Of a DNA stretch of 64,000 nt, positions 9,767 to 62,306 are shown in pieces. The notes beneath the pieces were generated by a model, which made no database searches, was not told where the DNA came from, and saw nothing but the letters and a program-made list of their open reading frames with translations. The position numbers were made by a program, and so were the translations under genes. Each line of letters begins with the position of its first letter. Position 1 is the first letter of the stretch. Source of the DNA: an uncultured delta proteobacterium (GTDB lineage Bacteria > Myxococcota_A > Polyangia > Polyangiales > Polyangiaceae); the NCBI GenBank assembly GCA_963841435.1, contig CAWJCS010000006.1, positions 1,216,001 to 1,280,000 of the forward strand. The letters run 5' to 3'.

Positions 9767-9988
9767 TCAGCGCGACACGTGCCGGGCTGGACCGAGGCGC
9801 CCGAAGCGGTGCAGCGCCACGAACGAGACGACGATTCCTGCGACGGTGAGCCAGCGCGCGAGCTCGTCGTCGTTCAGTGCGAGCAGGATGCCGAAGAGCA
9901 TCGAGGCGGCGCCGATCACGATGAGGAGCCGCGCGCGGCGCTCGTCGCGCTCGATGCCCTGCTGGGCGCTTTTCTTGCTCACGGCCAT
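9767..9988 (-). CDS. Small two-TM membrane protein
   Basis: Two hydrophobic helices, C-terminal HRFGRLG; its start overlaps the upstream gene's end. Confidence 0.7.
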   Translation of the reverse strand: MAVSKKSAQQGIERDERRARLLIVIGAASMLFGILLALNDDELARWLTVAGIVVSFVALHRFGRLGPARHVSR

Positions 9989-10522
9989 TTCTCCGCGTGA
10001 GCGCGCACGAGAAAGTCGCGCACGTCTCGTCGCAGCTTGAGCTCGGCGGTCACCGTCGTCTCCTGGTGCTCCTCGCCGACATGGTCATCGTAGAGGTAGT
10101 CGGTGTCGTGCAGCACGAGCACGCGCGCGTCGCTGTCCTCGCCGAGACCGCTGACGAGTTGCAGCGCGTCGCCCATGCTCGGGTCCCGGGGTGGCAACGC
10201 GGGGCCGAGCGCGTTGCGCTCGTTCGAACGTCACGTAGGCGACGCCGTACTTTCGACCCTGCGCTGCGACGTCAACCTGCAGCTGCCTGCCGGGTGCCAG
10301 AGCCACCGGTTTGCCGTGCACGGGTAGGTCGTGCTCGTCCTGGAATGCCTGAAGCACGATCTCCATCGCGCGCCGCTCGTCGAGCGGGCGTGTCGGGTTC
10401 GCGGCACGCGGTGGCGGCGATCCGCAAGCTTGGACGATCATCGTCACGACCAGCCAAGCGAGGCTCGCTCGCGCGCCCCGAGGGCGCGAGAGCCTGCTCG
10501 CGAGCCGGGCTTCCGCTGTCAT
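9979..10522 (-). CDS. Putative lipoprotein; apparent frameshift at ~10225
   Basis: IVQAC lipobox. ORFs 10085..10531 and 9979..10197 join (GVAYVT...ERNALGPALPPRDPSMGDALQLV) if one base is removed at GTTCGAAC. Confidence 0.7.
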
Positions 10523-10572
10523 TGGACGCAAAAGGTAGCCAAGAGGGCGAGGTTTAGCTAGCTCTCGGCGAC

Positions 10573-11205
10573 ATGCCTCGTCCAGGTCCCTCGGCGGTCC
10601 CGACGCTGGCGCTCGCGGGGCTCCTTCTCGGCTGCGCGCCCAAATCGCTGCCGGATCCGCGCGACGCCGCCCGGACCTACGCGGAAGCAGCCGCCCGCGG
10701 GGACGCCGTCCGGATCCACGCCCTGCTGACCCACGAGGCCCAGCGCCGTTTCGGCGCCGAGGGGACGCGCCGCCGGGTGGCCGACGCCCGCCCCGAGATC
10801 GTCCGGAACGGCAGGGCGCTGCTCGCCCCCGGCGTGCGGGTCGAGGGCGAAGCGACCGTGCTTTTGGCGGACGGGGGTGAGGCGGCCCTGAGCCTCGAGG
10901 GGGACTCCTTCCGTGTCGACGCGGCGGCCACCCTGCCGAGCGCGGCGCGCACGCCGGCGCAGGCGCTCGACGGGCTCAGGCGGGCGCTGCAACAGCGAAG
11001 CTATGCGGCGCTCTTGCGCGTGCTCAGCGTGGACACGCGCGGCTCCGTCGAGGGCGACGTGCGCGCGCTCGTCGCCGGGCTCGAGGATGCGTCGTCGCTC
11101 GACGTGCGCGTGAACGGTGACCGCGCGGAGGTCGACGTGCCCGGGGGCCATGCGGTCTCGCTCAGGCGCGAGGGAGGTGTTTGGCGCGTGGAGGACGTGC
11201 GATGA
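10573..11205 (+). CDS. Lipoprotein (NTF2-like/DUF4878-like repeats)
   Basis: LLLGC lipobox; C-terminal LRREGGVWRV; ATGA overlap with the next gene. Confidence 0.7.
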   Translation: MPRPGPSAVPTLALAGLLLGCAPKSLPDPRDAARTYAEAAARGDAVRIHALLTHEAQRRFGAEGTRRRVADARPEIVRNGRALLAPGVRVEGEATVLLADGGEAALSLEGDSFRVDAAATLPSAARTPAQALDGLRRALQQRSYAALLRVLSVDTRGSVEGDVRALVAGLEDASSLDVRVNGDRAEVDVPGGHAVSLRREGGVWRVEDVR

Positions 11206-17670: not shown

Positions 17671-18411
17671 TCAAGGTGGGGGCAGCCCCTCGCAGCGGCC
17701 CGTGTTGAGGTCGCAGTAGCGGTAAGGTCCGCACTGGAACATGCCGGTGCAGGCTCGGCACTCGTACTGGGCGCAGATCGGCTTGTCGAGCGGGCAATCG
17801 AACGAATCGCGACAGTCCACGCACGTTCCACCCGGCTGCAGGCACCGATCCGGCGCACAGTGGAGGTCCACCGTGCACTCGACGCAGAAAAAGAAGAACT
17901 GGTCGCAGAAGGGTCGATCGAATGGACACTGGTCCGAGGTGCGGCAGCTCGGCGTGCATTCGTAGAGCCCCTGGTAGGTGTTGCAGGCCTTGCCCGGGCT
18001 GCAGTCGAAGTCGCTCAGGCAGGCGATGCAGCGACTCAAATTCGTAGTTCGATCACGGAAACAGATGGGGGTCCCCATCGGGCAGTCGGCGCTCGCGACG
18101 CACGCGATGGGTCCGGCGCCTCCTTGGTCGTCACCACCTTCCCCGGTGAGCGCACCGACGTTGCCAGTTCCACCTGCGGCCACGGCGCCCCCACGACCCG
18201 CGGCACCCCCGGCCGCTGCGGGCGGGTGGCCCCCGGAGCTCGTCCCCGAAGTTTGCGTTCCGGCCGCCGCGCCCGACCCACCGGCCGCACTCGAGCCACC
18301 CGCGCCGCCGGATCCCTTGCTCGCGCCGCTCGAGAGAAGATCGAAGTTTTCGCTCGCGCAGCCCCACGCCATGGCAAGCGCTACGGCGAGGATTCGGCTC
18401 GGGCGACTCAT
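17671..18411 (-). CDS. Lipoprotein with Gly-rich linker and Cys-rich repeats
   Basis: AMAWGC lipobox; repeated C.s..dC....p.C motifs. Start could be 18423 or 18474. Confidence 0.8.
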   Translation of the reverse strand: MSRPSRILAVALAMAWGCASENFDLLSSGASKGSGGAGGSSAAGGSGAAAGTQTSGTSSGGHPPAAAGGAAGRGGAVAAGGTGNVGALTGEGGDDQGGAGPIACVASADCPMGTPICFRDRTTNLSRCIACLSDFDCSPGKACNTYQGLYECTPSCRTSDQCPFDRPFCDQFFFFCVECTVDLHCAPDRCLQPGGTCVDCRDSFDCPLDKPICAQYECRACTGMFQCGPYRYCDLNTGRCEGLPPP

Positions 18412-18620
18412 CCGGAGCGCCATTCTAGCCTCGCCACCGGGCAGGCGCCGCGCGTTGTGCGCTTCCGTGGCCACGGGAGATTTTCGGAGCAGGTGTCATC
18501 GGGCAGGCGAGCTTTGGGGACGTGCAGAAAGCGGCTGGCGAGAAAAAGGCTCGCAAAACCGGGAACAAGGCCGGCGTCGGGGTGCCTGCTCGCTGGGACA
18601 ATGAGGTACACTACTATCTA

Positions 18621-19259
18621 GTGACACAAGCGGTCAGAACCCTGGCGGCTCGCCTACGAGTCATCGACGGCGGCGCTGACCCCCGTGCCTCCGGGCCTAC
18701 CGACGAGGAGCTCGTCGAAGCCGTTCAAAAGGGCGATGCCGCCGTTGCGAGCCTGCTCTACGACCGCCTGCTGAGCGCCGTCGATCACGCGCTGTATCGG
18801 GTGTTCGGCCGGCGCGAGCACGACCACGACGACCTCGTTCAGGCCGCGTTCGAGCAGATCGTGCTGACGCTCTCACGTCGCTCCTACGCTCGCGCCTGCA
18901 GCCTGCAGACCTGGGCTTCGACCATTGCGACGCACGTTGCCTTCAATGCCCTTCGAGCCCGGCGCCGCGAACGGCGCGTGTTCGACCGAGATCCCTCGAG
19001 CACGGCGGACGCCGAGCCCGTGTCGAGCGCCAATCTCGAGCGCGCGGCTGGCGCGCGGGCTGACCTCGCGCGCGTGCGGTCGTCGCTGGTGCAGATGAAG
19101 CCCGAACGCGCCGAGACGGTGTTCTTGCACGACGTGCTCGGTCACGACCTTGCCGAGATCGCGCTGATGACGCGCGTCTCCGTTTCCGCTGCGCAGTCGC
19201 GGCTCGTGCGCGGCCGACGAGAGCTCAGGCATCGCTTGTCGAAGGAGGCGTCTCCGTGA
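18621..19259 (+). CDS. ECF RNA polymerase sigma factor
   Basis: Region 2 (DDLVQAAF...W...IA.H) and region 4 (LHDVLGHDLAEIA...SRLVRGRREL). Confidence 0.9.
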   Translation: MTQAVRTLAARLRVIDGGADPRASGPTDEELVEAVQKGDAAVASLLYDRLLSAVDHALYRVFGRREHDHDDLVQAAFEQIVLTLSRRSYARACSLQTWASTIATHVAFNALRARRRERRVFDRDPSSTADAEPVSSANLERAAGARADLARVRSSLVQMKPERAETVFLHDVLGHDLAEIALMTRVSVSAAQSRLVRGRRELRHRLSKEASP

Positions 19260-20359
19260 ACGTGCGCGACAGCGATCCGGATCTGGTGCGCACGTTGCGG
19301 GAGCTCGGCTCGGGTGGTGTCCCCGTCGCGGATGCCGGGCGCGCGGAATACCAGCGCGAGCGCGTCATCCGTGTGATCGGACGTGCGCTCCAAAGCGTGC
19401 GGAGCGCGCACCGCCGCGGCCGGCGCACTTTCGGGATCGTCGCCGCCGCGGCCCTGCTCGCGCTCGCGGTGGGCGGTGCTCGGCTGGCGCTCGGGAGCGG
19501 CACGGAAACCGCCACCGGCGACGTCGCGACGGGCGCCGTGGCGGCGCGCAGCGTCTTCGGCACCGTCACCGTCACGGGAGTCGGCGTGCCCCACGCGGCG
19601 GTGGTGGGTGATCTGTTCCGCGGCGGCGAGGCCGTCACGACGGCCCTCGATTCGAAGATCGATCTCTCGGTCGAGTCCGGCGTCGCCGCTCTCGGCGCGT
19701 CGAGCCATCTCGAGTTCATGACGCCCAATCAGAAGGAGCGGCGCGTGCGGCTCTCGGCCGGGCGCGTCAACGTGGACCTGCCCGTGAAGCTGCGCGGTGG
19801 GCGCCATCTGGTCGTCGAAACCCCGGATGTAGACGTGCTCGTGGTCGGTACCGCGTTCAGCGTGGGTGTGGACCGGCAGGGGACGGAAACGACGACGCGC
19901 GTCAACGTCCAGCGCGGGACGGTCTGGGTCGTGAAGGGTGGCCGGCAAGAAGCGGTGCTGGTTGCTGGTCAGTCGTGGCGTTCCGGGGCGCCCGTTGCCG
20001 CCACGACCACCGCTCCTGCGGAGTCTTCCGCGACGGCGCCGAAAGCCTCCGTTCGGGCGTCGCGGTCGGGCGATTCGGGAACCCTCGCCGACGAAAACCG
20101 AATGTTTCAAGCGGGTCTCTCGGCGCGCAACGCGGGCGACGCCCAGGCTGCCGCCGACGCGTTCGGTGCGTTGCTCGCTCGCTACCCCCGCTCCGTTCTG
20201 GCCGAGCAAGCCCTCGCCGAGCGCTTCCGCGCGCTCGGGCGTGCTGGCAATACTTCGTCGGCCGCGGCCGCGGCACGCCGCTATCTCGCGAGCTACCCCA
20301 GGGGTTTTGCGCGCGTTGAGGCGGAACGGGTCACACGGGGGTCTCTCGGCGCGCGTTGA
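19256..20359 (+). CDS. FecR-domain anti-sigma factor with C-terminal TPR-like domain
   Basis: TM segment; VETPDVDVLVVGTAFSV...V.VQRGTV; C-terminal L..EN...LARYP.S...YLASYP.G; GTGA overlap with the sigma gene. Confidence 0.88.
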   Translation: MNVRDSDPDLVRTLRELGSGGVPVADAGRAEYQRERVIRVIGRALQSVRSAHRRGRRTFGIVAAAALLALAVGGARLALGSGTETATGDVATGAVAARSVFGTVTVTGVGVPHAAVVGDLFRGGEAVTTALDSKIDLSVESGVAALGASSHLEFMTPNQKERRVRLSAGRVNVDLPVKLRGGRHLVVETPDVDVLVVGTAFSVGVDRQGTETTTRVNVQRGTVWVVKGGRQEAVLVAGQSWRSGAPVAATTTAPAESSATAPKASVRASRSGDSGTLADENRMFQAGLSARNAGDAQAAADAFGALLARYPRSVLAEQALAERFRALGRAGNTSSAAAAARRYLASYPRGFARVEAERVTRGSLGAR

Positions 20360-20472
20360 TGAGCCGGGTGCGCGCGCATCGCACATCAGAGCCTGATTGC
20401 GAGAAGCCGAAGTTACTTAGGGGAGCGTGCGTCGGGTGATGACATCCACGTGCCGCCCTAGGAGGCTTCCCG

Positions 20473-21135
20473 ATGAGGTTTATCAACGTTGGTTTTGGTC
20501 TCGTGGTGTCCGGCGCCCTGGCTACGGCAGTCTCCGGATGCGGTGGTGGTGACGACGACGCGAACGCCCCAATCGTGCCGAGCACGGGCGGCAGCTCGGC
20601 CACGGGTGGCAGCTCCGGCACGGGCGGCACCTCCGGCACGAGCACGGGCGGCACGACGAGCACGGGCGGTACGGGTGGCACGCTGAGCACCGGCGGCACG
20701 AGCGGTACCGGTACTGGCGGTACGGGCGGCACATTGAGCACAGGCGGCACGAGCGGCACGGGCGGCACCGCTGGCATGGCGGGCGGCGGTGGTCGCTTCG
20801 GTGGCGACGCTGGCGGCGCCGGTATGGCGGGCGGCGGTGGTCGCTTCGGCGGCGACGCTGGCGGCGCCGGCATGGCTGGTGGCGGTGGTCGCTTCGGCGG
20901 CGACGCCGGTGGCGCCGGCATGGCTGGCGGCGGTGGCCGCATGGGTGGCAACGCTGGCGGCGGTGGCCGCATGGGTGGCAATGCCGGCAACGCTGGCGGC
21001 GGTGGCCGCATGGGTGGCAATGCCGGCAACGCTGGCGGCGGTGGCCGCATGGGTGGCAACGCTGGCGGCGGCGGCCGCATGGGCGGCAACGCTGGCGGCG
21101 CTGGCATGGCCGACGGCGGAACCGCCGGCGCCTGA
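20473..21135 (+). CDS. Gly-rich lipoprotein with eight GGGGR[F/M]GG[D/N]AG repeats and no globular domain
   Basis: SD GGAGG at 20461; AVSGC lipobox; Thr/Ser/Gly tract followed by the Arg-containing repeats. Confidence 0.85.
   Translation: MRFINVGFGLVVSGALATAVSGCGGGDDDANAPIVPSTGGSSATGGSSGTGGTSGTSTGGTTSTGGTGGTLSTGGTSGTGTGGTGGTLSTGGTSGTGGTAGMAGGGGRFGGDAGGAGMAGGGGRFGGDAGGAGMAGGGGRFGGDAGGAGMAGGGGRMGGNAGGGGRMGGNAGNAGGGGRMGGNAGNAGGGGRMGGNAGGGGRMGGNAGGAGMADGGTAGA
20776..21105 (+). repeat. Intragenic tandem repeats: three 48-nt units (MAGGGGRFGGDAGGAG), then five 30/39-nt units (GGGGRMGGNA[GNA])
   Basis: 48-nt periodic ATGs at 20776, 20824, 20872 and 20920. Confidence 0.9.
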
Positions 21136-21234
21136 GCGGTTCAGAGCTCGCGGCGAGCGCGGCGCCGGGGCGGCCCACGCCCCGGCGACGCGTGACGCGG
21201 CTCGAGCCCCCCGAGGGCGACTAAGCTCTTCCCG

Positions 21235-22752
21235 ATGCGGCTCCTGGGTCGCCTGAAGAGCGTTTATCTCGGCGCCGACGAGCGCAGTCTCGCCGCGGGG
21301 CGCATCGCGCTCGCGGTCGTTCTGCTGCTCGATCTCGCGCGCCGCGCGCGCGAGATCGACACCCTCTACTCCAACGATGGGCTCTTGCCGAACCACACGG
21401 TGCTGTGGCGGCCGTCGTCGAGCCACGTCTTCTCTTTCTTCTTCATGGCGTCGCACGGCTACGAGGCGGCGCTCGGCTTCGCGCTCTGTGCGCTCGTCTA
21501 CGCGGGCCTCCTCTTCGGCCATAAAACCCAGTTCTGCCAAGTCGCGAGCCTTCTGTGCGTGCTCAGCCTGCACGGCCGCACGCAATTCGCGCAGAACGGC
21601 GGCGACAACGTGCTCGGCGAGCTCTGCCTGTTCGCGGCGTTCTTGCCGCTGGGGCGTCGCTACGCGCTCGATGCCCGCGAACAGGCCGCCGGGCAGCGCG
21701 ATGTCCGGTCGCTCGCCATGCTCGCGCTACGTCTCCAGATTGCCACGATCTACGCGTTCAACGCGCTGCAGAAGACGGGACCGACCTGGCGCGACGGGAG
21801 CGTCGTCCACTACATGCTGCACCAGGACGGCATCGTCACGATGCTCGGGGCCTGGCTGCGCGACCGGCTCACGCTGGGCGAATCGGCCGTCATGACGCAT
21901 GCGGCGCACGCGATCGAGGCGGCGTTGCCGTTGTTGATCCTGTCTCCGGTCGCCGTGCCCCACGCGCGGCGCCTCGCAGCAGCGCTCATGCTCGCCTTGC
22001 ACGGTGGCTTTGCGCTGGCTCTGAACCTCGGGATCTTCTCCTTCGCGATGCTCGCGTTCGCCCCATTTTTACTGCCGGGGGAGGACATCGAGCGTTTCGT
22101 CGGCTGGCTCGATAGAACTTCGAAGCGCCACCTCGGCGACACGCGACGACGACTCGTCGCATGGCGCGATCGCTTGCCCCAGGTGACTTCGCGAGGGCGT
22201 CCGGCCCGAACGGAGCCGCACCGGCGCCGTGCGCTCGTGCGACTCGGCGAGGTGACGATCGTCGTCATCATGGGCGTGGCCGGTTGCCAGGAGCTGGTCG
22301 ACAACCCCGTCACGGGGGTCGACCTCTCGTGGCGTCCGCGCGCCGTGGGCGTCGCCGTCGATTACCTGCAGATGCTCGAGGCCTGGGCGATGTACGCGCC
22401 CGACGCGCCCACCACCGACACGAACCTCTGGGTCAACGCCGTGACGCGCGACGGCCGCCACGTCGATCCGTTCAACGAGCGGGCGAGCCCCGGCGCACCC
22501 CGCCCGGGCGGCGCGATTCCCGCGCATCTCGGCCAGAGCTGCCTGCTCTACGCCTACGCGCTCCGCATCCCCTACCAGCCGGCGTACCACCGAGCGCTCG
22601 GCGAATGGATCCTGCGTTACCCGGAGCGCACGGGGCACGCCGGGGACGAGATCCGCTCGTTTTCCGTCTACGCCGTCGAGGACGAGAGTCCCCCGCCGGG
22701 AGAGCGCGAGCCACGACGGGCGAAAGCGCGGTTCTTATTCGGCTATCCGTGA
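21235..22752 (+). CDS. HTTM-domain (vitamin K-dependent carboxylase-like) membrane protein
   Basis: D.RSLA..RI, LYSNDG.LP, NGGD, LPLGRRY.LD, LQIA.IY, K.G..W.DG, LH.G, W.MYAP. Confidence 0.8.
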   Translation: MRLLGRLKSVYLGADERSLAAGRIALAVVLLLDLARRAREIDTLYSNDGLLPNHTVLWRPSSSHVFSFFFMASHGYEAALGFALCALVYAGLLFGHKTQFCQVASLLCVLSLHGRTQFAQNGGDNVLGELCLFAAFLPLGRRYALDAREQAAGQRDVRSLAMLALRLQIATIYAFNALQKTGPTWRDGSVVHYMLHQDGIVTMLGAWLRDRLTLGESAVMTHAAHAIEAALPLLILSPVAVPHARRLAAALMLALHGGFALALNLGIFSFAMLAFAPFLLPGEDIERFVGWLDRTSKRHLGDTRRRLVAWRDRLPQVTSRGRPARTEPHRRRALVRLGEVTIVVIMGVAGCQELVDNPVTGVDLSWRPRAVGVAVDYLQMLEAWAMYAPDAPTTDTNLWVNAVTRDGRHVDPFNERASPGAPRPGGAIPAHLGQSCLLYAYALRIPYQPAYHRALGEWILRYPERTGHAGDEIRSFSVYAVEDESPPPGEREPRRAKARFLFGYP

Positions 22753-22762
22753 CGAGGCGACG

Positions 22763-23827
22763 CTAGTCGGTGTCCCACCAGAAGTAGCTGTGGATGCGAA
22801 ACTCCTGCTCGGGGAGCTTCTTTCCCTCGAGCTCGCCCGCGAAGTGAGCGTCGTAGCTCGACATGGGATTCGCGCGCATCACGAGGCGGCCGCGCAAGGT
22901 GTCCCCGATGTGAACCTCGAGGGGCTTCGCGAAAACGAAGCGCAGCTGCGCCCAGTGCGTGCGTGGCGCGTCGGGCGCCGTGCTCAAAACGACGCGCTCG
23001 GTCGTGCCCTCGAAGGTGACGTCGAACCAGCCGGCGAGCCCGTGAATCGTGCCGGGGTGTGTCGCGACGAACTCGAACGGAAGCACGATCTCGGCGAGGT
23101 CGTCGAGCGGTACCGTGCGAAAGTCGAAGCCGTGCACCACGGGGCTTGCCATGAGCAGGCGGGGAGGGACGAAGCCGAGCGCCGGCATCGCGGAGAGTTC
23201 CTCCGCCGCCACCGACCCGAGGCCCGACAGGTCAACGCCGAAGAAATCGGTCTGCTCCCAGAACTTCTTACGGGAGACGCGGCCCTCGAAAAGCTTCTGA
23301 TCGACGAAGGGGGCGAGCCAGAGCCGACCGGTCGTTGGAAAGAGCGTGCCGCCAGGGCGGAGGAAGCGATCACGCGCGATCAGGAACGCCTCGACCATCC
23401 GCTCGTGGAACAGGAAAAATCCCCACGGCTCCGAGATGATCACGTCGATCGGCTCGGGCATGGAGAGCTCGGCGAGCTGGCCCTTGACGATGACGACCCG
23501 GTCGCTCATGCCATTGTGCTCGAACAGGCGGCGCGCATGCTCGGCCGTTGCCGTTCCCTCGACGGCGTACACCTTGCGAGCGCCGGCGAGCGCCGCGAAC
23601 GCCGACAGGATCCCCGTGCCCGCGCCCACGTCGAGCACGACCTTACCCGCGAAGTCGGCGCGATTGCCGACGATGCCCTGCCGGTAGGCGCCGGTGCGCT
23701 CGCGATCCTCGAGCATCGCCTGTTGGTTCGCGAGGAAGTGGTAGTGGGCCGAATGGACGGCACCCCACTCCGGGAGCACGGGAACGAGCTTGCTCCCGGC
23801 GTCCGGTTTCGGGCTCGAAGACGCCAT
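22763..23827 (-). CDS. CARM1/PRMT4-like type I protein arginine N-methyltransferase
   Basis: QQAMLEDRERT, VLDVGAGTGILS, VYAVE, IDVIISEPWGFFLFHERM (double-E loop), FL.PGG.LFP, FW.Q..F.GVDLS, HGLA.WFDV.F, LSTAP..P.THW.Q. Confidence 0.9.
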   Translation of the reverse strand: MASSSPKPDAGSKLVPVLPEWGAVHSAHYHFLANQQAMLEDRERTGAYRQGIVGNRADFAGKVVLDVGAGTGILSAFAALAGARKVYAVEGTATAEHARRLFEHNGMSDRVVIVKGQLAELSMPEPIDVIISEPWGFFLFHERMVEAFLIARDRFLRPGGTLFPTTGRLWLAPFVDQKLFEGRVSRKKFWEQTDFFGVDLSGLGSVAAEELSAMPALGFVPPRLLMASPVVHGFDFRTVPLDDLAEIVLPFEFVATHPGTIHGLAGWFDVTFEGTTERVVLSTAPDAPRTHWAQLRFVFAKPLEVHIGDTLRGRLVMRANPMSSYDAHFAGELEGKKLPEQEFRIHSYFWWDTD

Positions 23828-23850: not shown

Positions 23851-25170
23851 TCAGCCGCCCTTTGCCGCACAGCGCATGGCGCACTGCAGGTCGCCGGAGG
23901 AACAGCCGCACTTGCTGCGCGGCTTGGCTGGCGCGGCCGCAGGCTCGCTGCCGCCGCTCGTGCTCGAACCCGAGCTCGACGACGACTTCTTCGTGGAGGT
24001 CACGCGGCGAGTCGTGGTCGTCCTCTTTTTCTCGGGCTTGTCGGGTCCCTCGTCGTCCGCCGACCCCGTGGGTGGTGGGGCCGCCGTGAGGGTCGGGGTG
24101 GGGGTCGGCGTTGGTGCTGCTGCCGGGGGAGGAGGCGGCAGTGGCGCCTCGACGACGGGCGGCGGCGGAGCCGGACGCAGGATGACGGCGAGCGCCACGA
24201 TCACGGCGGCGGCGACGATGGCGATGGCGATGAAGAGGCCCGTCTTGCTCTTCTGTGGCGACGCGAGATCCGCCGCCGTGAGCCCGCCGCCGAGCGGTGA
24301 GCCCAGGCCGAGCGGGGCCGAGACGCCGAGCGGCGCCGTGCCGAGCGGTGACATCGCCGGGGCCGCAGTGAGTGGCTGGGCCGCGGCGGCGCCCTCGGAC
24401 TTCACGGCGGCGGCCGTGAGTGCCTTCAGATCGATGAGACCCGAGTCGTCACGGCTCGCGGTCGTGGAGGAGCCGCGTGGAGCCGGCGCCGACCGCGACG
24501 GCGACGACGCCGACGCCAACGTCAGCGCGCTCAGCGAGAACAGCACCGACGACTCATTGCGCGCGCCGGTTGCTCCAGCCAACCCGCCGCCTCCCAATCC
24601 CCCGGGTTCGGGAGCGCTGGTCGCGACGTCCTCCTCGCTGCCGGCGCGGTCGATGCGTCCGAAGAGGTCGCTGCCCGCTGCCCGCGCGGGCCGAGCGGCC
24701 GCTCTCACGGGGCTTGGTTGGGGCGGCGGCGCTTCGGACTTGGCTTCCCAGGGCGATGCCGCGGGGGCCGGCGCCGCTTGCGCGTGGCCTGCCGCCGCGT
24801 GCAGCGCTTCCACGATCTCGTCAACCTCGGACAGCGCCTTCCAATCCTCGAAGCCGTCTGCCCAAACGTACGTTTCGCCCGTGATCTGGCCTGCATTGTA
24901 GGCTGCAACGATCTCGGCGACCGGCATCGTGCGCTGATCGCCGTCACCGAGGTCCACCGAATACTCAGGGCCTGTTTCCGCCTGTTCGCTCATGGGATGC
25001 TCTTCTGCCGGTTCCCCGCCCGTTGAAGCCGTGACGGACGGAGGGTTCACCTTACCGTCGATGACGATGGTCGCGCCGCACTTGCGGCAGCGGATCTTCG
25101 CCAGCCGAGACACCACCTTCTCGTCGGAGATGGAGTACTTCGCGGAGCAGGAGGGACAACTTATCTTCAC
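23851..25170 (-). CDS. Zinc-ribbon (MJ0042-type) + GYF_2 membrane protein, GltJ/AgmX-like N-terminus
   Basis: CPSC.AKY.I.D...RCRKC; GQITGETYVWADGFEDWK.LSEV; RNESSVLFSL and SGLIDL motifs; TM; Pro-rich tail; C-terminal CGC..GDLQCAMRC. Confidence 0.85.
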   Translation of the reverse strand: MKISCPSCSAKYSISDEKVVSRLAKIRCRKCGATIVIDGKVNPPSVTASTGGEPAEEHPMSEQAETGPEYSVDLGDGDQRTMPVAEIVAAYNAGQITGETYVWADGFEDWKALSEVDEIVEALHAAAGHAQAAPAPAASPWEAKSEAPPPQPSPVRAAARPARAAGSDLFGRIDRAGSEEDVATSAPEPGGLGGGGLAGATGARNESSVLFSLSALTLASASSPSRSAPAPRGSSTTASRDDSGLIDLKALTAAAVKSEGAAAAQPLTAAPAMSPLGTAPLGVSAPLGLGSPLGGGLTAADLASPQKSKTGLFIAIAIVAAAVIVALAVILRPAPPPPVVEAPLPPPPPAAAPTPTPTPTLTAAPPPTGSADDEGPDKPEKKRTTTTRRVTSTKKSSSSSGSSTSGGSEPAAAPAKPRSKCGCSSGDLQCAMRCAAKGG

Positions 25171-25482
25171 GCTTGGCCTCGTGAGGGACCCGGGCTGGGG
25201 TACAGGGATACTATCATCGGAAAGAGACCGCTCCGGTCCAGCGGTCGCATCATTAACCAAGCAATACGGAGCGCTCTGCGATTCGGTCTGGCCTGCCTAG
25301 CAGACGGTGAAACGGGCGCCGGAGCGCACCCTTTTAGCTAGATTCGCCCGTGAGCGCCAGCTTCAAGGGCGAGAGCCTGCCCGACCGAGTTCGACACCCC
25401 CTTCTTCCAAAGGCTTTGCTAGTTTTTGGGGGCTCGGGGCCGGGAGGGTCGGAAAACGCTGGGATTTGGAGGCCTTCCCGGG

Positions 25483-26146
25483 TCAAGGCTCGCCCTCCGG
25501 CCCCCGGCCCAGCCGGGAAAGGGCGGTCAGCGCGGCGATTCGCTCGGCGAGCTCCGGATTTTCGCCGTCCTCGGCACGCAATGCACGAAACAACTCGTGC
25601 GTCGCGGCCGCGAGATCGCCTTCGGTGATTCGCGCTTCCGCGCGCTTGGCGTAGAGCTTCGCCGCCTTCGAACGGCAGAGCTCGTCGAGTGAACGAGCTC
25701 CCGTGTCGGCCCGATCGGCCGTCGTGCCGTCGGAGTCAACATCGAGCCGGAGCTCGCCCTTCGCGAGGGCGAGATCGTAGGCCGCGCGACGCTCCGGCAC
25801 GATGAGCGCCTGGTACGCCTCGACGCCCCGCCGGAAGACTCGCAGGGCAATCCGACGCGCAGCGTCATCGCCGCGCGACTGGGCGTCGGGGTGGAACGCC
25901 AGGGAAAATTCGTGGAACGCGCTTCGGATCGCGTCGGCGTCCGCAATCTCGAGGACGCCGAGGATCTCGTAGTAGCTCGCGTCGTCGAGCACGCCGTCCC
26001 ACGCCATCAGGTGCGCGAGATTCGAGCGACGCCGCGTCCTCGGCGGGCTCGAGAGGATCGAAGCCGGCGTCGGGTGACGGCTCGATGGGCGGCCGGCTCG
26101 AGCCCGGACCAGCGCCGTCGTCGCCCGCATCGTTTGCTTCGCTCAT
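25483..26146 (-). CDS. J-domain (DnaJ-type) co-chaperone; possible frameshift at ~26021 (intact alternative start ATG 26007)
   Basis: SYYEILGV...FHPD...EAYQAL..PERRAAYD; C-terminal TPR-like helices. Confidence 0.85.
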
Positions 26147-26163: not shown

Positions 26164-28420
26164 TCAACCGGTGCGCTGGGCGGCGTGACGCGCTGCGAGG
26201 CCGGCGACGTGTTCGGGCTCGGGAATGGCGACCATGTGGACCTTCGCCAACGTCTCTCGCCCGGTCTGCACGTCGCGTGCGCTCACCTCGAGCAGACCGT
26301 CCGTGTCGAGCGCGAAAGTCACCGCGACCTCCACCGTGCCGCGCGAGCCTGCGCGCAGACCCGTGAGCTCGAGCTCTCCGAGCAACGTGTTTTCAGCGAA
26401 CCGACTCGACTCGCCCTGACCGATGCGCACTCGTACAATCGTCTGGTTGTCGGATGCCGTGACGAAGTTTCGTCGCTTGCTGCAGGGCACGGGCGTGTTG
26501 CGAGCGATCAACGAGTCGGAGTAACCGCCGATGGTCTCGACGGAGAGCGTGAGCGGCGTCACGTCGATGAGCACGGGAGGTGGAGCCGCGAGCGGCATGG
26601 GGGCGGGCGCTGGGAGCGGAGCGGTGAGCGCTGCGGCCGCCGCCGCGGGAGCGGGCACCGAGGGCAGCGGGGGACCGGCGTCCGCGGGCGGCGGCATGGG
26701 CGGTGCGGGGCCGACCCGCGTGGGAGCGTCGTCGGGCACCTCGGGAAGCGGCAAGGACGCTTCGTCGAGATCCTCGAGCTCGGCGGGCTCGAGTAGCTCG
26801 ATGTCGTGGACGCTCGTCGAGGCCGGCGGAGGGGGTGGGGGCGGCGGAGGGGGCGGAGGTAGAGGTAGGGGCGGTAGCCGTGGCGCTGCGCGCCCAGGGG
26901 TGTCCGGTGGAGACAGCGGTGGCGCGAGCGCTGCCGTGCGGGCCGCGTCGCCGAGGCCGCTGCCGGTCTTCGTCCGCGCGCGGGCGCCGAGGCCGAGCAG
27001 CGTCGACCCTTCACGGTGCGTCGGGGTCTCGGGCGTGAGCGCCGCGGGCGGCTGCGCAACGCCCGGTCGCGTCACCATGCCGCGGCGTGGCTCGAACGGC
27101 TTGGTCTCGGGTGCGACCTCGCCCTCGGCCACCATGCTGCTCAGCCTGACGCGCCCGGGTTCGGCGGGGCCGCCGCTCGCGTCGCCGCTCGGTCGCGTCG
27201 TGCGCGCGACGCCGCGCTGCGTGTTCGCAAGGCGTGCAGGCACCGGCGGCGCGGGCACCGGGGCGCGTCGCCGCTCCGTTCCCGAAAGCGCGCTCGCCTG
27301 AATCGCGGCGCCCACCGCGACGACCTCGTCGGGGCTGACGTGGTGGTTTCCTTCGCGGCGGAAGAATTCCTCCACGCGCCGGCGAACGAGGGGAATTCGT
27401 GTCGACCCGCCGACCAGCAGCACCTGATCGAGGTCGGTCACGGAGAGCCGCGCCACGCCGAGCGCCTCGCGGCAAACGTCGAACGTCTGATCGACGATCG
27501 GCGCGATCGTGATCTCGAGCTCGCCCCGCGTCATCTCGAAGTTGAAATCGATCGAGCGCCCGTCGGGACCGTGCACGACGTCCTCCATCGAGACGCTCGC
27601 GGAGTCGTCCGTCGAACAGGCGCTGCTTCAGATCCTCGGCGGCAATCCGGAAGCGGTCGAACAGCACCGGGTCGGTGCGCACGTCGTAGCGGTGCTTGCG
27701 GAGGAAGAGCTCCGCCATGCGCTCGGCGATCGCGACGTCGATGTCGTCGCCGCCGAGGAACGTGTTGCCGGCCGTCGCGAGCACCTCGAAAACGTTGTTC
27801 GACAGATCGAGCAAGGTCACGTCGAACGTGCCGCCGCCGAAATCGTAGACGGCGATGCGCTCGGCGCTGTCCTTGCCGTAGCCGTACGCAAGCGCGGCGG
27901 CCGTGGGCTCGTTGAGGATGCGCAGCACCTCGAGTCCCGCGACGCGTCCGGCCACCTTCGTGGCGGCACGTTGCAGGTCGTTGAAATTTGCCGGCACGGT
28001 GATGACGGCCTGCTCGACGGGCACTCCGAGCGCGGCCTCGGCCACGGTCTTCGCCTTACGCAGCACGAACGCGCTGATCTCGGGCAGCGTGTAGGTTTCG
28101 CCGCGCGCGAACACGAGCGTGGACTGGCCGGGGCCCTCGCGCATCTCGAAGGGCAAGCGCGAACGCGCGCGCCGGACCTCCTCGGTGTCCCAGCTGCGTC
28201 CGATGAGCCGCTTGACCGAGTAGATCGTGCTCCCGGGGTCGATGATGCGGCGATCCTTGGCCGTGCGTCCGACGAGCACGCTGCCGTTCGGGTGGAAGGA
28301 CACCACCGAGGGAATCAGCGTGTTTTCCCGCTCGTCCGGCAGTGGCTGAGCTTCGCCGTCCCGAACGGCCGCGACGACGGTGTTGGTCGTCCCGAGGTCG
28401 ATGCCGACGACCTCGCTCAC
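26164..28420 (-). CDS. Hsp70 (DnaK-family paralog) with long Pro-rich insertion and no lid domain; apparent frameshift at ~27615
   Basis: GIDLGTTN, TVPANFND.QR, NEPTAAAL, DFGGGTFD, LVGGSTRIP, PDEVVA.GAA, LIDVTPL, T.SDNQ. The two ORFs join as KQRL|STDDSASV. Confidence 0.88.
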
Positions 28421-28968
28421 GACCGTACCCCCGCTTCGATCTCGATCTCGCGAAGCACGGCGTCGTACCAACGCGCGATCGTCCCTTCGAACGGCCACAT
28501 CCAGCCGTAGGCGCCGCCCGTGAAGCGTTCGACGATGGTCTTGCGAAGCGACGGCGAGCGCGCGCTCTCGAGCCCGCGCAGGTGTGCCGTCGCGCGCAGC
28601 GTCTCGCGATAGGCTTCCCACTCGAGCCGCGCGCGACCGTACGCGAGCCCGATGGGGAAGAACGGGACGAGGTAGACGAATGCCATCAAGGCAAGGCCGT
28701 AGCGTCGGCGCTGGCGGAGGTGGACGCGCTCGTGGTGGAGCACGATCGCGCGGTCGATGTCGGGTGTGTCGTCCCAGGCGAACGGCGTGTAGAGCGTGTA
28801 GCCGAGCACGGTGTGGTAGCGGGTGAGGTACTCGCGCTGTGCCCCGAGCGTGAGGACGCGCAACAACCAATCGATGGCGACCGAGAGTGGGTCGCCACGC
28901 TTGGGCACGAGTCGGAATGCGGGGAATTCCTCCGTGATTTCAGCGATCAAGCCCTCGGCGAGCGCCAC
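28417..28968 (-). CDS. Hypothetical protein with HExxH zincin-like motif
   Basis: LHHERVHLRQ, a hydrophobic segment, then LEWEAY; GTGA-coupled to the Hsp70 gene. Confidence 0.7.
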   Translation of the reverse strand: MALAEGLIAEITEEFPAFRLVPKRGDPLSVAIDWLLRVLTLGAQREYLTRYHTVLGYTLYTPFAWDDTPDIDRAIVLHHERVHLRQRRRYGLALMAFVYLVPFFPIGLAYGRARLEWEAYRETLRATAHLRGLESARSPSLRKTIVERFTGGAYGWMWPFEGTIARWYDAVLREIEIEAGVRS

Positions 28969-30173: not shown

Positions 30174-32624
<2,451 letters not shown>

Positions 32625-47701: not shown

Positions 47702-47845
47702 CCAGGCCGCGCCGGGCCGGCGAGGCTTTCCGGCGCGGAAGGGTCAGGATGAGCGCGGGGGTGCAAGTTCGTGATTCCCAAGACCACGCTGGAGCGACTT
47801 GAACCGAGATCAGGCGCCCGAGCGGGCGGCGAGGAGCGAACGTCG

Positions 47846-49078
47846 ATGACATCGTGGTCGAAAACGGCAGGGCTGTGCTTCATCACCGGGCTCGGCGTCG
47901 CCACGCCAGGCTGCACCGGGTCGGACGGCAGCGGGTCACCGACGGGCGCGGGCGTGGGGGGTACCCTCGGCGGAACCGCCGGGACCGCCGGAACGGCGGG
48001 GATGGCGGGCGGGTCGAGCGGTGGCGCCGGGGTGGGGGGCCAGGGCGGCGGCACGGCTGGCGCGGCCGGGCTTGGCGGCGGAGCTGGTGCGGCGGGGACA
48101 GGCGGCGCAGGAGGTGCCGGAGTCGGCGGCCTCGCAGGTGACGGCGGCACGAGCGGCGGCGCCGGCACGAGCGGTGACGCCGGCACGAGCGGTGACGCCG
48201 GCACGAGCGGTGACGCTGGCACGAGCGGCGCCGGCGGCGTGGCGGGCAACGGCGGCGCTGGCGCGGCCGGTGCGGGCGCGGGTGGTGCCGGGGCAGGCGG
48301 CGCGGGCGCAGGCGGTGCCGGAACGGGCGGAGGGGGCGGAGCCGCCGACTGCAAGGGCAATGCGCTCTCGCTAAGCTCGAACGTTGCGGGCGGCTCCGAC
48401 CCGGCCAAGTCGCGCGTCATGGTCGACTTCGGCCAGAGCGCGGATCTACCGCTCGGCAATTCGAACCGCACCGTGGAATTCTGGGCGTACGTTCTTACGA
48501 CGAGCTGGGTCGGCGAGAACAACACGATGTTCGAGTACGGCGATCAGAGCACGCAAAACGCGGGCTTCGGGCTCGACTTCGGCGGCAACAACGCAACGAT
48601 GGATCCGTACACGAACGGCTCGTTCGACAACGACAACCAGCCGAGCGGGCTCATGGAATCACCCGACCAGTGGGTGCATTTCGCCATGACGTACGACGGC
48701 AGCGCCGTGCGCCTTTACGTGAACGCGATGATCAGCTCGACGAGGATGTCGTCCGGCAACATGCTGCAGACGGCGCGCACGCAGCTCACGATCGGCGGAA
48801 ATCCCCGCGGTAGCTACTTCAACGGCACGATCGAGGAGTTTCGCCTCTGGAACGTCGCCCGGACGCAGCAACAGATCCAGAGCACCATGAACGTCACGCT
48901 GGCCGGCGACGAGCCGGGCCTCGTGGGCTACTGGAAGTTCAACGAGACGAGCGGCACGACGGCCGCCGATTCAGTGACGAGCGCCGGCCACACGCCGCAC
49001 GACGGCGTCCTCATGGCGACGAACCAGAACCAGCTGCCGACGTTCATCGCGTCGACGGCCATGCTCGACTGCCCGTAG
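47846..49078 (+). CDS. Lipoprotein with Gly-rich linker and LamG/concanavalin-like domain
   Basis: SD GAGGAG; ATPGC lipobox; TVEFW, WVHFAMTYDG, LYVN, FNGTIEEFRLWN, GLVGYWKFNE. Confidence 0.85.
   Translation: MTSWSKTAGLCFITGLGVATPGCTGSDGSGSPTGAGVGGTLGGTAGTAGTAGMAGGSSGGAGVGGQGGGTAGAAGLGGGAGAAGTGGAGGAGVGGLAGDGGTSGGAGTSGDAGTSGDAGTSGDAGTSGAGGVAGNGGAGAAGAGAGGAGAGGAGAGGAGTGGGGGAADCKGNALSLSSNVAGGSDPAKSRVMVDFGQSADLPLGNSNRTVEFWAYVLTTSWVGENNTMFEYGDQSTQNAGFGLDFGGNNATMDPYTNGSFDNDNQPSGLMESPDQWVHFAMTYDGSAVRLYVNAMISSTRMSSGNMLQTARTQLTIGGNPRGSYFNGTIEEFRLWNVARTQQQIQSTMNVTLAGDEPGLVGYWKFNETSGTTAADSVTSAGHTPHDGVLMATNQNQLPTFIASTAMLDCP
48146..48230 (+). repeat. Intragenic 18-nt tandem repeat (GTSGDA)
   Basis: GGCACGAGCGG starts at 48146, 48164, 48182, 48200 and 48218. 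Confidence 0.85.
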
Positions 49079-62149: not shown

Positions 62150-62306
62150 ACTCTTTAGTTACGCCGCCGCGCGCCGAGACCTTCCTTCACGGCTCCGCGG
62201 TCGGTGGCAACGTCCGCCCGGGACGCAATCCCGGGGCCGGCGATGCGTTTCGCGACGGGCGTCGTGATCGGTTTGACGTTTTCCGGCATCGCTCAGCCGG
62301 GAACCA

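Follow-up and report, generated by a model that had tools for sequence, protein, structure and literature searches.

Two convergent gene groups

The window (the whole 64,000-nucleotide stretch of soil-bacterium DNA that was analysed) carries the features below, each with its coordinates, strand and the basis for its naming. L001, the single close relative compared at the DNA level, covers 18.3 kb.

18522..19259, + strand: ECF-type sigma-70 factor (coordinates of the longest ORF; translation may start later)
19256..20359, + strand: anti-sigma factor with a FecR domain and, C-terminally, a TPR/YfiO-like region (Pfam)
20473..21135, + strand: Gly/Arg-repeat lipoprotein, 220 aa (signal peptide, lipobox, Shine-Dalgarno sequence, L001 positional orthologue)
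20769..21119, + strand: tandem-repeat array coding for eight GGGGR[F/M]GG copies (TRF, motif positions)
21138..21208, + strand: GC-rich hairpin in the lipoprotein-HTTM gap (RNA fold)
21235..22752, + strand: HTTM / vitamin-K-dependent-carboxylase-like integral membrane protein, 505 aa (Pfam, AF2, Foldseek)
22763..23827, − strand: CARM1-type PRMT, catalytic core only, 354 aa (Pfam, PDB comparison)
23851..25260, − strand: MJ0042-type zinc-ribbon and GYF_2 domain protein (Pfam Zn_ribbon_4 E 2.5e-10, GYF_2 E 6.2e-9)
25483..26130, − strand: J-domain protein, upstream in the PRMT-strand group (Pfam DnaJ E 1.4e-11)
26164..28870, − strand: Hsp70-like gene carrying a Pro-rich insert and split between two reading frames (each piece matches Pfam HSP70)

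These genes form two convergent groups and not one three-gene module. Group A, on the + strand (18522-22752), reads ECF sigma, FecR/TPR anti-sigma, lipoprotein and HTTM; group B, on the − strand, reads Hsp70-like, DnaJ, Zn-ribbon/GYF and PRMT. An earlier sequence-only reading had united the lipoprotein, HTTM and PRMT genes in one module, a proposal that this arrangement does not support: the PRMT gene is the last of group B, 23 nt downstream of the GYF gene, and it converges with the HTTM gene, their stop codons being 10 nt apart.

Within group A the sigma gene matches Sigma70_r2 (E 5.8e-10), Sigma70_r4_2 (E 5.2e-9) and Sigma70_ECF in Pfam and the NCBIfam sigma70-ECF family (56.1 bits against a cut-off of 42.9). 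It overlaps by 4 nt the anti-sigma gene, which matches FecR (E 7.4e-7), YfiO (E 2.7e-7) and TPR_6. Gaps of 113 nt (anti-sigma to lipoprotein) and 99 nt (lipoprotein to HTTM) follow. The hairpin in the latter has a perfect 10-bp core stem, lacks a U tract and folds at −64.4 kcal/mol against −54.6 ± 4.1 for shuffles (z = −2.4); no consensus terminator was found there, and a possible role is that of an attenuator or processing/stability element. A search for promoter and terminator consensus sequences yielded nothing informative for co-transcription or ECF control. In group B the Zn-ribbon/GYF protein has long Pro/Ala/Ser-rich disordered regions, one TM segment and a weak match to the GltJ N-terminus, and the Hsp70-like gene changes frame near 27615, frames −1 and −2 joining at ~27617 when set against a single 878-aa ORF in L001.

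L001 is colinear with the window over its entire 18.3 kb, housekeeping genes such as Lon and Fmt included, and its synteny is therefore not specific to the PRMT, HTTM and lipoprotein genes. The order ECF, FecR, lipoprotein, HTTM recurs there (with a lipoprotein-HTTM gap of 53 nt), as does the order GYF then PRMT; the orthologues are 80% identical for the sigma factor, 49% for the anti-sigma factor with its domains unchanged, and 61% for the Zn-ribbon/GYF protein in its unchanged position, and the J-domain protein has an orthologue too. The intergenic regions gave no alignment. Since the two loci are colinear throughout, the pairing of lipoprotein and HTTM in 2/2 loci compared could be plain synteny.

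The repeat lipoprotein

The lipoprotein begins with a signal peptide (20473-20538) and a lipobox VSG↓C whose lipidated Cys, residue 23, is encoded at 20539-20541; a Shine-Dalgarno sequence, TAGGAGG, lies 8 nt ahead of the ATG. A (T/S)GG-rich spacer follows the lipobox, and then come the repeats, exactly eight copies of GGGGR[F/M]GG (three RF and five RM, residues 104-205) which hold 8/8 of the Arg of the mature protein, the one other Arg being residue 2, in the signal peptide. This much the sequence-only reading had described, and it is confirmed on ORF 20473-21135. The mature protein is 45% Gly and has no Lys, Glu, Tyr or Trp. At the level of units the array comprises three 16-aa RF units and five 10/13-aa RM units, TRF reporting a 48-bp period (4.0 copies, 89% match) and also 30- and 69-bp periods. 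When the mature protein was shuffled 20,000 times with its composition preserved, GGGGR[F/M]GG occurred 0.007 times on average (maximum 2) and the looser GGRxGG 0.43 times (maximum 4), against 8 observed for each, a test limited by the copies being DNA tandem repeats and not independent events.

The (T/S)GG type of spacer is also used by other lipoproteins in the window. As the same reading had noted, Gly-rich linkers elsewhere are nearly free of Arg: 0/172 aa in ORF 47753-49075, 0/132 aa in 62277-63119 and 1/74 aa in 17671-18474, which gives 8/184 for the repeat lipoprotein against 1/378 (Fisher's test, p = 0.0008). Arg is thus specific to the repeat lipoprotein among the Gly-rich lipoprotein tethers of the window.

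Might the ORF be no gene at all, and instead a GC-rich tandem DNA repeat that is open by chance in several frames? The array is covered, over both strands, by four overlapping ORFs, each 155 aa or longer, and the antisense ORF 20522-21178 has the higher GC3 (0.84 against 0.756). Pfam and NCBIfam name no family for the lipoprotein, none of 8 variants of the ORF is present in a collection of 15 billion proteins, and homologue searches detected spacer-only matches and nothing else. However, a canonical lipoprotein signal peptide with lipobox, a strong Shine-Dalgarno sequence, a spacer of the type found in other lipoproteins of the window and, at the same position in L001, an independent signal peptide and lipobox with CGGGDD and different repeats in an ORF of near-equal length make a chance opening highly improbable. 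The ORF is accepted as a gene on the strength of its signal peptide and lipobox, Shine-Dalgarno sequence, position and a positional orthologue of the same architecture.

That orthologue (L001:9942-10598, − strand) lies between FecR and HTTM and is 218 aa long as against 220. Signal peptide, lipobox, CGGGDD, (T/S)GG spacer and Gly/Arg repeats are common to the two, and yet phmmer does not pair them. The L001 repeat is GGRTGG, which holds 7/9 of its Arg; in overall composition the window and L001 proteins have 8 and 9 Arg, 0 and 0 Lys, 0 and 0 Tyr/Trp, and 3 and 6 Phe. The residue after the Arg is Met or Phe in the window and Thr in L001, and repeat Asp, of which the window has 3 and L001 none, is not conserved. 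Of the design previously emphasised, Arg set in Gly therefore recurs, while R[F/M] is not kept. Comparison of the two proteins shows a design retained despite turnover of sequence, in one orthologue. The lipoprotein is genuine, evolves fast and is intrinsically disordered, and its (T/S)GG spacer of ~75-95 aa followed by ~100 aa of GGRxGG repeats among Phe/Met reads as a ‘sticker and spacer’, a cationic non-folding tail. By analogy we take it to resemble FG-type sticker-spacer disordered proteins.

The HTTM protein and the PRMT

An HTTM/VKGC-like gene does lie between those for the lipoprotein and the PRMT, as had been noted. Its product matches Pfam HTTM (E 7.3e-10; 39.3 bits, the cut-off being 27.7), and its AF2 model (pLDDT 87.6, pTM 0.89) has a C-terminal beta-rich domain. 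With this model Foldseek returned 15 PDB matches at E <= 1e-3, all of them GGCX (as were the top 16/16), with TMq 0.41-0.51 over ~500-550 columns at 12-15% identity. K180, invariant in 40/40 homologues, aligns to the second of the two paired Lys of GGCX, and chains of the K217A/K218A mutant of GGCX score worse against the HTTM profile than GGCX does (E 0.0032 versus 5e-5). The model thus shows a full-length vitamin-K carboxylase fold, and the profile alignment an invariant equivalent of the catalytic Lys.

The HTTM protein also matches the NCBIfam SdpB family weakly (E 1.2e-9), and the portion of the literature consulted has SdpA and SdpB as needed for processing of secreted SdpC (PMC6818787). 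Together with near-identical tandem units and a strong hairpin 3′ of a ‘structural’ gene, this would suit a multi-core precursor whose repeats are cut out as secreted cationic peptides rich in Gly, RiPP-like or matured as SdpC is to SDP, with the HTTM protein as SdpB-like maturation factor. However, at 38 bits the SdpB match falls far short of the cut-off of 178; among the flanking ORFs Pfam/NCBIfam name neither an SdpA-like partner nor a protease, exporter or immunity gene; the lipobox points to membrane retention; and cleavage sites are not recognisable in the repeat units, which are completely different in L001. We regard such a precursor as improbable.

The PRMT was correctly identified at the outset (Pfam PRMT_C E 9.8e-23; E 1.3e-88 to CARM1 among PDB chains, other PRMTs being at 1e-54 or worse). 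It is ~48% identical to animal CARM1 over a catalytic core (query residues 27-333), and 24 homologues show no variation in its Motif I, double-E loop or THW; on sequence criteria it is a CARM1-type catalytic core. No signal peptide was found on it.

At least 13 further contigs, matched by their length, carry homologues of both PRMT and HTTM, against a mean of 0.79 and a maximum of 4 in an offset control; 6 of the 13 contigs are <=3.6 kb, and the two genes occupy 74-89% of each of these. Such contigs are confined to one HTTM clade (15/28 rows inside it, 0/93 outside) and are spread over at least two subclades of the PRMT tree. The neighbourhood is shown to be conserved, over a wider range than could be shown for any other feature here, and a functional link of PRMT with HTTM would also produce such conservation. 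The synteny that the sequence-only reading proposed to check holds for PRMT and HTTM in the close clade; of 27 more distant PRMT-like loci, 0/27 have an HTTM gene or a Gly/Arg-repeat ORF.

Does the PRMT then methylate the repeat Arg while the pre-lipoprotein is still in the cytoplasm, ahead of its export via Sec, with the HTTM protein perhaps modifying it further, as one system of post-translational modification? The three genes are adjacent, Gly-embedded Arg is the only repeat feature common to the window and L001, the PRMT-HTTM contigs belong to one HTTM clade and the catalytic motifs of the PRMT are all intact. Rickettsia OmpB, an exported protein, is reportedly modified by cytoplasmic methyltransferases. 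Even the preference of CARM1 leaves some room, ~6% of its mapped sites being without nearby Pro in the text available (PMC5458078).

Against this, the parts consulted of two papers (PMC4919620, PMC5458078) describe CARM1 as the PRMT that leaves Gly/Arg-rich (GAR) motifs unmethylated and favours Arg with Pro close by; a part for Gly and Met in its ‘PGM’ motif had been proposed but was not validated. Of the Pro/Gly/Met preference initially invoked only Pro is upheld, and the general rule that PRMTs methylate GAR motifs is reported not to extend to CARM1. Pro lies within ±5 of Arg in 0/8 cases in the lipoprotein repeats and 0/9 in the L001 lipoprotein, as against 11/21 in the Zn-ribbon/GYF protein and 23/41 in the C-part of the Hsp70-like protein. 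The EVH1 domain, which CARM1 needs for most substrates according to the same partial source (PMC5458078), is absent from the PRMT; the Met/Phe following the Arg is replaced by Thr in L001; PRMT and mature lipoprotein are in different compartments; the PRMT gene closes another gene group, which runs on the opposite strand; the synteny with L001 runs for 18 kb through unrelated housekeeping genes; and neither partner appears at the distant PRMT-like loci. With 48% identity to CARM1 and no EVH1, a bacterial enzyme need not share CARM1's specificity. The PRMT is nevertheless probably not the modifier of the lipoprotein, and a single methylation system seems distinctly unlikely. What the sequence-only reading observed is confirmed; its interpretation is partly supported.

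A candidate envelope module and its known counterparts

The reading we favour, at about even chances, is of an ECF-controlled envelope module in which a disordered lipoprotein is joined by an HTTM enzyme facing the periplasm, the PRMT being a conserved neighbour of unproven relevance. An envelope signal would act through the ECF/anti-sigma pair to switch on group A, the lipoprotein and HTTM genes presumably being co-transcribed. The lipoprotein would be exported via Sec and lipid-anchored in the envelope, where the HTTM protein, its active site facing the periplasm by homology to GGCX, may act on or mature it after export, in parallel with SdpB on SdpC and GGCX on its clients. Glu gamma-carboxylation is excluded as the chemistry, since the mature lipoprotein lacks Glu, and with the repeat Asp not conserved either, no known HTTM chemistry fits. 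The PRMT, a cytoplasmic enzyme, would more plausibly have as clients the Pro/Arg-rich disordered segments of group B proteins.

A rather unlikely alternative is that the lipoprotein, unmodified, is the sensing or tethering part of the ECF/anti-sigma pair, a disordered cationic probe presumably comparable in principle to stress-sensing lipoproteins, with the HTTM protein simply belonging to the regulon. In both loci the lipoprotein gene comes next after the ECF/FecR pair, and its product lacks a folded domain, Glu or a conserved Asp for carboxylase-type chemistry, and a conserved design with drifting sequence fits a physical tether or polycation and not a site of enzyme recognition. However, its interaction with the pair is purely putative, and the tight same-strand arrangement of lipoprotein and HTTM in both loci counts against this alternative.

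Among known systems the lipoprotein recalls the eukaryotic RGG/GAR low-complexity regions that are substrates of PRMT1/3/5/6/8, with tandem Gly-flanked Arg and interspersed Phe, but those regions are nuclear or cytoplasmic whereas the lipoprotein is exported and lipid-anchored, and the adjoining PRMT is of the one type that, in the sources as consulted, does not use GAR motifs. CARM1 (PRMT4), a eukaryotic type I enzyme, shares with the PRMT Motif I, the double-E loop, the THW loop and PRMT_C; the window enzyme lacks both the N-terminal EVH1/PH domain and the C-terminal tail, and its host is bacterial (Polyangiaceae-type). SdpB/YitO of B. subtilis, as far as the available account goes (PMC6818787), likewise pairs a polytopic HTTM-type protein with a neighbouring signal-peptide-bearing protein whose maturation needs it (the SdpC/YitM toxins), though that client is a hydrophobic toxin precursor and here it would be a Gly/Arg-repeat lipoprotein. 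GGCX, at about 758 aa against 505 aa, is likewise a membrane enzyme with an HTTM domain and a C-terminal extramembrane domain; the full-length predicted fold of the HTTM protein matches GGCX structures only, and its invariant Lys falls at the Lys pair that PDB entries 9l6r/9l6s carry in mutated form, but the candidate client beside it has neither Glu nor a recognisable propeptide. In malonomycin biosynthesis MloH, a bacterial orthologue of the vitamin-K-dependent carboxylase, acts on a polyketide/non-ribosomal peptide intermediate and not, as would be the case here, on a ribosomal lipoprotein; it carboxylates an aspartyl residue and, in the part consulted of the preprint reporting this (bioRxiv 10.64898/2026.08.19.745780, citing Law et al. 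2018), illustrates that bacterial HTTM enzymes can use a non-Glu substrate.

Two convergent gene groups

The locus is made up of two gene groups that converge tail to tail. With moderate confidence, the plus-strand group is taken to specify an ECF-controlled envelope module of two products, a carboxylase-like membrane protein (HTTM) and a disordered, cationic lipoprotein encoded next to it, on which HTTM would act, or which it would mature, at the periplasmic face.

Genes of the two convergent groups (window coordinates, strand, product, position)
18522-19259, +, ECF sigma factor
19256-20359, +, FecR/TPR anti-sigma factor; overlaps the sigma gene by 4 nt
20473-21135, +, Gly/Arg-repeat lipoprotein; 113-nt gap after the anti-sigma gene
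21235-22752, +, HTTM; 99-nt gap after the lipoprotein gene, carrying a strong GC hairpin
22763-23827, -, arginine methyltransferase (PRMT); 23 nt after the zinc-ribbon/GYF_2 gene, its stop codon 10 nt from the HTTM stop, tail to tail
23851-25260, -, zinc-ribbon/GYF_2 membrane protein (GYF protein); directly upstream of the PRMT gene
25483-26130, -, J-domain protein; between the Hsp70-like and zinc-ribbon/GYF_2 genes
26164-28870, -, Hsp70-like gene with Pro-rich insert; first in the PRMT-strand group

The G+C content of the window is about 70%, and its proteins have their nearest relatives among sequences annotated as Polyangiaceae or Polyangia. A PRMT-profile scan of genome contigs listed 80 loci, among which the only close relative is L001, a Polyangiaceae MAG contig sharing ten genes with the window in unchanged order. 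L001 is colinear with the window throughout its 18.3 kb, Lon protease and formyltransferase genes included, and its synteny is thus not specific to the PRMT, HTTM and lipoprotein genes. Evolutionary rates within this one colinear block are very uneven: the Lon protease (30174-32624, +; positions 1-1215 of L001) reaches 96% protein identity, HTTM is about 50% identical, and the lipoprotein repeats cannot be aligned.

The hairpin between the lipoprotein and HTTM genes (21138-21208, +) is GC-rich and very stable (z = -2.4) and has no U tract; in L001 that position holds no more than a short palindrome. Scanning for promoter and terminator consensus sequences was uninformative (0 promoters; 5 terminator-like sites against 3.6 expected), and aligning the intergenic regions of the window and L001 gave no conserved promoter motif. 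The Hsp70-like gene, a single 878-aa ORF in L001, lies in two frames in the window, with the change near 27615 and tblastn segments in frames -1 and -2 meeting at about 27617; the cause is either an error of sequencing or assembly that looks like a single-base indel, or real disruption of the gene.

Could the lipoprotein be just a sensing or tethering part of ECF signalling, without modification of any kind? The plus-strand layout accommodates this reading, which we consider unlikely.

An orphan Gly/Arg-repeat lipoprotein

The lipoprotein ORF encodes 220 aa, comprising a signal peptide with lipobox (Cys23), CGGGDDD, a (T/S)GG-rich spacer and the repeats, where eight copies of GGGGR[F/M]GG (3 RF, 5 RM; 0.007 copies in shuffles) account for every Arg of a mature protein devoid of Lys, Glu, Tyr and Trp. 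All eight Arg have at least two Gly within ±2, a GAR/RGG-type layout with Arg between Gly in the repeats. At the DNA level the array consists of tandem repeats with 48-bp and 30/69-bp units, and so the copies reflect a few recent duplications and not eight independent events. The lipobox of bacterial lipoproteins, which are signal peptidase II substrates, follows an n-region and an h-region and has the pattern [LVI][ASTVI][GAS]C; inspection of the translations found A-V-S-G-C in the window protein and L-T-A-C in its L001 counterpart.

The ORF is almost certainly a real gene. It has a TAGGAGG ribosome-binding site 8 nt 5' of its ATG, besides the canonical signal peptide and lipobox, and in the same gap between FecR and HTTM genes L001 has a positional orthologue (9942-10598, -) of 218 aa, with its own signal peptide, lipobox and CGGGDD, a (T/S)GG spacer and then Gly/Arg repeats over some 100 aa. 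The L001 repeat unit differs (GSGFGQGGRTGGQGG), the common design being 9 versus 8 Arg, all between Gly, with Phe present and Lys, Tyr and Trp absent. Those preferring to regard the ORF as no gene at all, a very improbable position given this orthologue, could point to its GC3 of 0.756, below the 0.84 of an antisense ORF (20522-21178, -), and to exact look-up of eight variants of the ORF, taken in both orientations from the window and from L001, which found none in a collection of 15 billion proteins. The ORF is truly absent from that collection, because a self-match would reach E 9e-96. Gly-repeat genes of this kind are probably mis-called or skipped by gene callers, and such lipoproteins may in consequence be systematically absent from protein databases. 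Counting synonymous against non-synonymous differences among repeat units was discarded as a frame test, being partly circular with units picked by peptide, and in the window one antisense frame scores equally well.

No known family was matched in Pfam, NCBIfam, sequence searches or the ESM Atlas, where the top score of 0.79 is under any useful level. A word-indexed search gave 2 matches at E <= 1e-3 among 8000 candidates, and 2 were likewise obtained when 1.84 billion representatives were searched exhaustively with HMMER. All of these matches (P0121, P0122 and P0245) were rejected as relatives, having matched in the (T/S)GG spacer only, without Arg repeats. Sequence search is blind for this protein, because it also missed the L001 positional orthologue. 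A literature search found no paper on Gly-rich disordered lipoproteins in Myxococcota.

The contrast drawn in the sequence-only reading between this protein and the other Gly-rich linkers of the window was sound, three such lipoprotein tethers having 0, 0 and 1 Arg (Fisher p = 0.0008). The proteins concerned (17671-18474, -; 47771-49078, +; 62307-63122, +) have long Gly/Ser/Thr/Ala tethers, followed by folded parts that include Cys-rich repeats and a Laminin_G_3 domain. Acidic residues come directly after the lipidated Cys (CGGGDD, CGGDDDD) in several lipoproteins, both in the window and among database matches.

The CARM1-type methyltransferase and its neighbourhood

The PRMT is a member of the CARM1 clade, a type I PRMT whose activity is predicted from its sequence. 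Its Rossmann domain (Pfam Methyltransf_25, E 2.9e-9) has a motif I (VLDVGxGxG) that aligns to that of CARM1, with D66, G68, G70 and G72 invariant in 24 homologues. Equally invariant are E133, E142 and T290-H291-W292, which align to SEPMG...ERM and THW of CARM1 and which we take to be the double-E and THW loops of the Arg-binding pocket. The beta-barrel/dimerisation subdomain matches PRMT_C (E 9.8e-23; 81.3 bits against a cut-off of 27). Structure chains of CARM1 match with E between 1.3e-88 and 4.6e-88 and those ranking behind them (plant PRMT4.2, PRMT6, PRMT2 and PRMT1) with 1e-54 to 1e-49; the protein shares about 48% identity with rotifer CARM1 and neighbours eukaryotic CARM1 in the tree. 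Unlike CARM1, it has no N-terminal EVH1/PH domain for substrate recognition: residues 27-333 of its 354 aa are the catalytic core only.

Among the matches listed (P0002-P0120), a 79-row bacterial clade, mostly Polyangiaceae where named, is up to 68% identical to the window PRMT. The tree suggests inter-domain transfer, with either direction possible. Some short PRMT sequences of bacterial length, one labelled Myxococcota, fall on its eukaryotic side. Literature searches found no study of bacterial or Myxococcota PRMTs, this family included, so that CARM1-type cores in Polyangia are a sizeable and seemingly unstudied family. The conserved place of the PRMT gene, beside one HTTM clade and behind the GYF gene, points to specific proteins that may be the first PRMT substrates in bacteria.

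Is the lipoprotein among those substrates? The sequence-only reading proposed that the PRMT may methylate the repeat Arg, with HTTM perhaps modifying the protein further, and treated the three genes as a candidate 'PRMT-substrate module'. What it had observed, an eight-copy repeat lipoprotein with HTTM and PRMT as neighbours, is upheld by the ORF, Pfam and shuffle data. The adjacency of the genes, the retention of Arg-in-Gly between the window and L001 and the conserved PRMT-HTTM neighbourhood all speak for methylation. The module is nevertheless not established, and methylation of the repeats appears improbable: the PRMT gene is on the other strand in a separate gene group, the enzyme has no export signal, Pro within ±5 of a repeat Arg is found for 0/8 in the window and 0/9 in L001, and the Phe/Met at +1 is not retained, L001 having Thr there. 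According to the excerpted text of one paper, CARM1 'does not methylate GAR motifs' and clearly prefers Pro near Arg, and the only PRMT with a reported +1 Met/Phe preference is PRMT9, not CARM1 (PMC4919620). A proteome-wide CARM1 study, as excerpted, confirmed Pro enrichment, did not validate the Gly and Met that the sequence-only reading had included in the CARM1 preference, and found the EVH1 domain to be required for most substrates (PMC5458078).

Pro lies within ±5 of 11 of the 21 Arg in the GYF protein, and of 23 of the 41 in the C-part of the Hsp70-like protein. GYF_2 domains bind Pro-rich peptides in eukaryotes, and the GYF protein could be either a partner or a substrate of the CARM1-type PRMT. 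It combines an MJ0042-type zinc ribbon and GYF_2 with long disordered stretches rich in Pro, Ala and Ser, a TM segment and a tail rich in Cys, and at its N-terminus it has a weak match to GltJ, a gliding-motility protein.

The co-occurrence that the sequence-only reading proposed to check across genomes holds for the PRMT-HTTM pair on 13 further contigs and fails at a distance. Homologues were paired by equal length of their 'longest contig' (118/120 PRMT rows and 119/120 HTTM rows listed); 14 lengths coincided, one of them that of the window's own contig, where an offset control gave 0.79 on average and never more than 4. The other 13 contigs measure 2618, 2859, 3121, 3164, 3392, 3536, 5146, 9869, 10838, 26150, 95457, 191128 and 207626 bp; nine are at most 10.8 kb long and six at most 3.6 kb, the two genes filling 74-89% of the latter. 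The 13 are a lower bound, because length matching missed L001's own HTTM. Among the other loci of the scan, L002-L028 and L036 have PRMT-like genes, 27-43% identical, and most of L029-L080 match the SAM-binding region only; an HTTM gene, a GYF gene and a Gly/Arg-repeat ORF were each found in 0 of 27 of these more distant PRMT-like loci (L002-L028, L036). A FastTree phylogeny of L001 and the 120 HTTM homologues listed places every one of the 15 PRMT-linked rows in a single 28-row clade (support 80; 24-row core, support 100), with no linked row among the 93 outside it, and in the PRMT tree the linked rows occupy at least two subclades of the 79-row bacterial clade. The PRMT-HTTM neighbourhood is, then, old and stable within one lineage, the cause being either selection or slow rearrangement of a housekeeping region.

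A carboxylase-like enzyme and its possible client

HTTM is a member of the HTTM/VKGC family (PF05090, 39.3 bits against a gathering threshold of 27.7, E 7.3e-10; 31.2 bits for the L001 orthologue), with 700 homologues detected. A phmmer search of the PDB gave no match at E <= 1, and the vitamin-K-dependent carboxylase, GGCX, was reached only by profile and fold search. The best 16 Foldseek matches in the PDB to the predicted model (pLDDT 87.6) are all GGCX, 15 of them at E <= 1e-3 with TMq 0.41-0.51 over some 500-550 columns and the sixteenth, 9bum, at E 0.035 and TMq 0.33, with subsequent matches at E > 0.3; in the model the GGCX-like fold spans membrane and extramembrane parts alike. K180 is invariant in 40/40 homologues and profile alignment puts it at the second Lys of the GGCX Lys pair, K218, which we take to be the catalytic base; GGCX chains with K217A/K218A, a mutant named in PDB titles, score lower against the HTTM profile. 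On the strength of GGCX-only fold matches and the invariant K180 aligned to the Lys pair, HTTM is plausibly an active vitamin-K-carboxylase-like enzyme. Its active site would, by homology to GGCX and the topology we assume for the latter, face the periplasm. In 7/120 listed HTTM homologues (P0139, P0209, P0215, P0223, P0225, P0232 and P0239) a DCC-family thiol-disulfide oxidoreductase (PF04134) is fused, and six of the seven come from parts of the tree away from its PRMT-linked side.

Assignment to the SdpB family (TIGR04033) was rejected at 38.2 bits against a cut-off of 178.4, and none of the flanking small ORFs, where SdpA- or SdpC-like partners were looked for, matched a Pfam or NCBIfam family. 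With its repeats and adjoining membrane enzyme the lipoprotein might also be a RiPP-like, multi-core peptide precursor, though a protease, ABC exporter or immunity gene is not named among the neighbours, and we give this reading little credence. Prediction of a complex between HTTM and mature lipoprotein residues 23-220 scored 0.00, run without controls, and weighs neither way.

Two things continue to be of interest: the pairing of a carboxylase-like enzyme with an orphan lipoprotein of Gly/Arg repeats, and the bacterial CARM1-type family with its conserved neighbourhood. A more elaborate version, in which the CARM1-type PRMT methylates the RGG-like lipoprotein before export and HTTM then acts on it in the periplasm, the two 'eukaryote-like' protein-modifying enzymes being kept together in a Polyangiaceae-type clade, seems quite improbable; if true, it would provide the first case in bacteria of an exported low-complexity protein with methylated Arg, and a client for HTTM that is not modified on Glu. 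HTTM proteins abound in bacteria and, to our knowledge, GGCX, SdpB and MloH are nearly the only members whose clients have been described. An HTTM in conserved pairing with a small, oddly simple lipoprotein under ECF control would be a tractable client/enzyme pair for bacterial carboxylase-like envelope chemistry.

That chemistry would differ from the familiar one. Clients of the GGCX type are Glu-rich, with a propeptide, and undergo gamma-carboxylation, whereas the mature window lipoprotein has 0 Glu, which excludes Glu carboxylation for this client; its L001 orthologue has 1, outside the repeats, and the repeats have no conserved Asp. HTTM proteins can serve other clients, to judge by two precedents: SdpB, needed together with SdpA to process secreted SdpC (PMC6818787), and MloH, which carboxylates an aspartyl residue (bioRxiv 10.64898/2026.08.19.745780).
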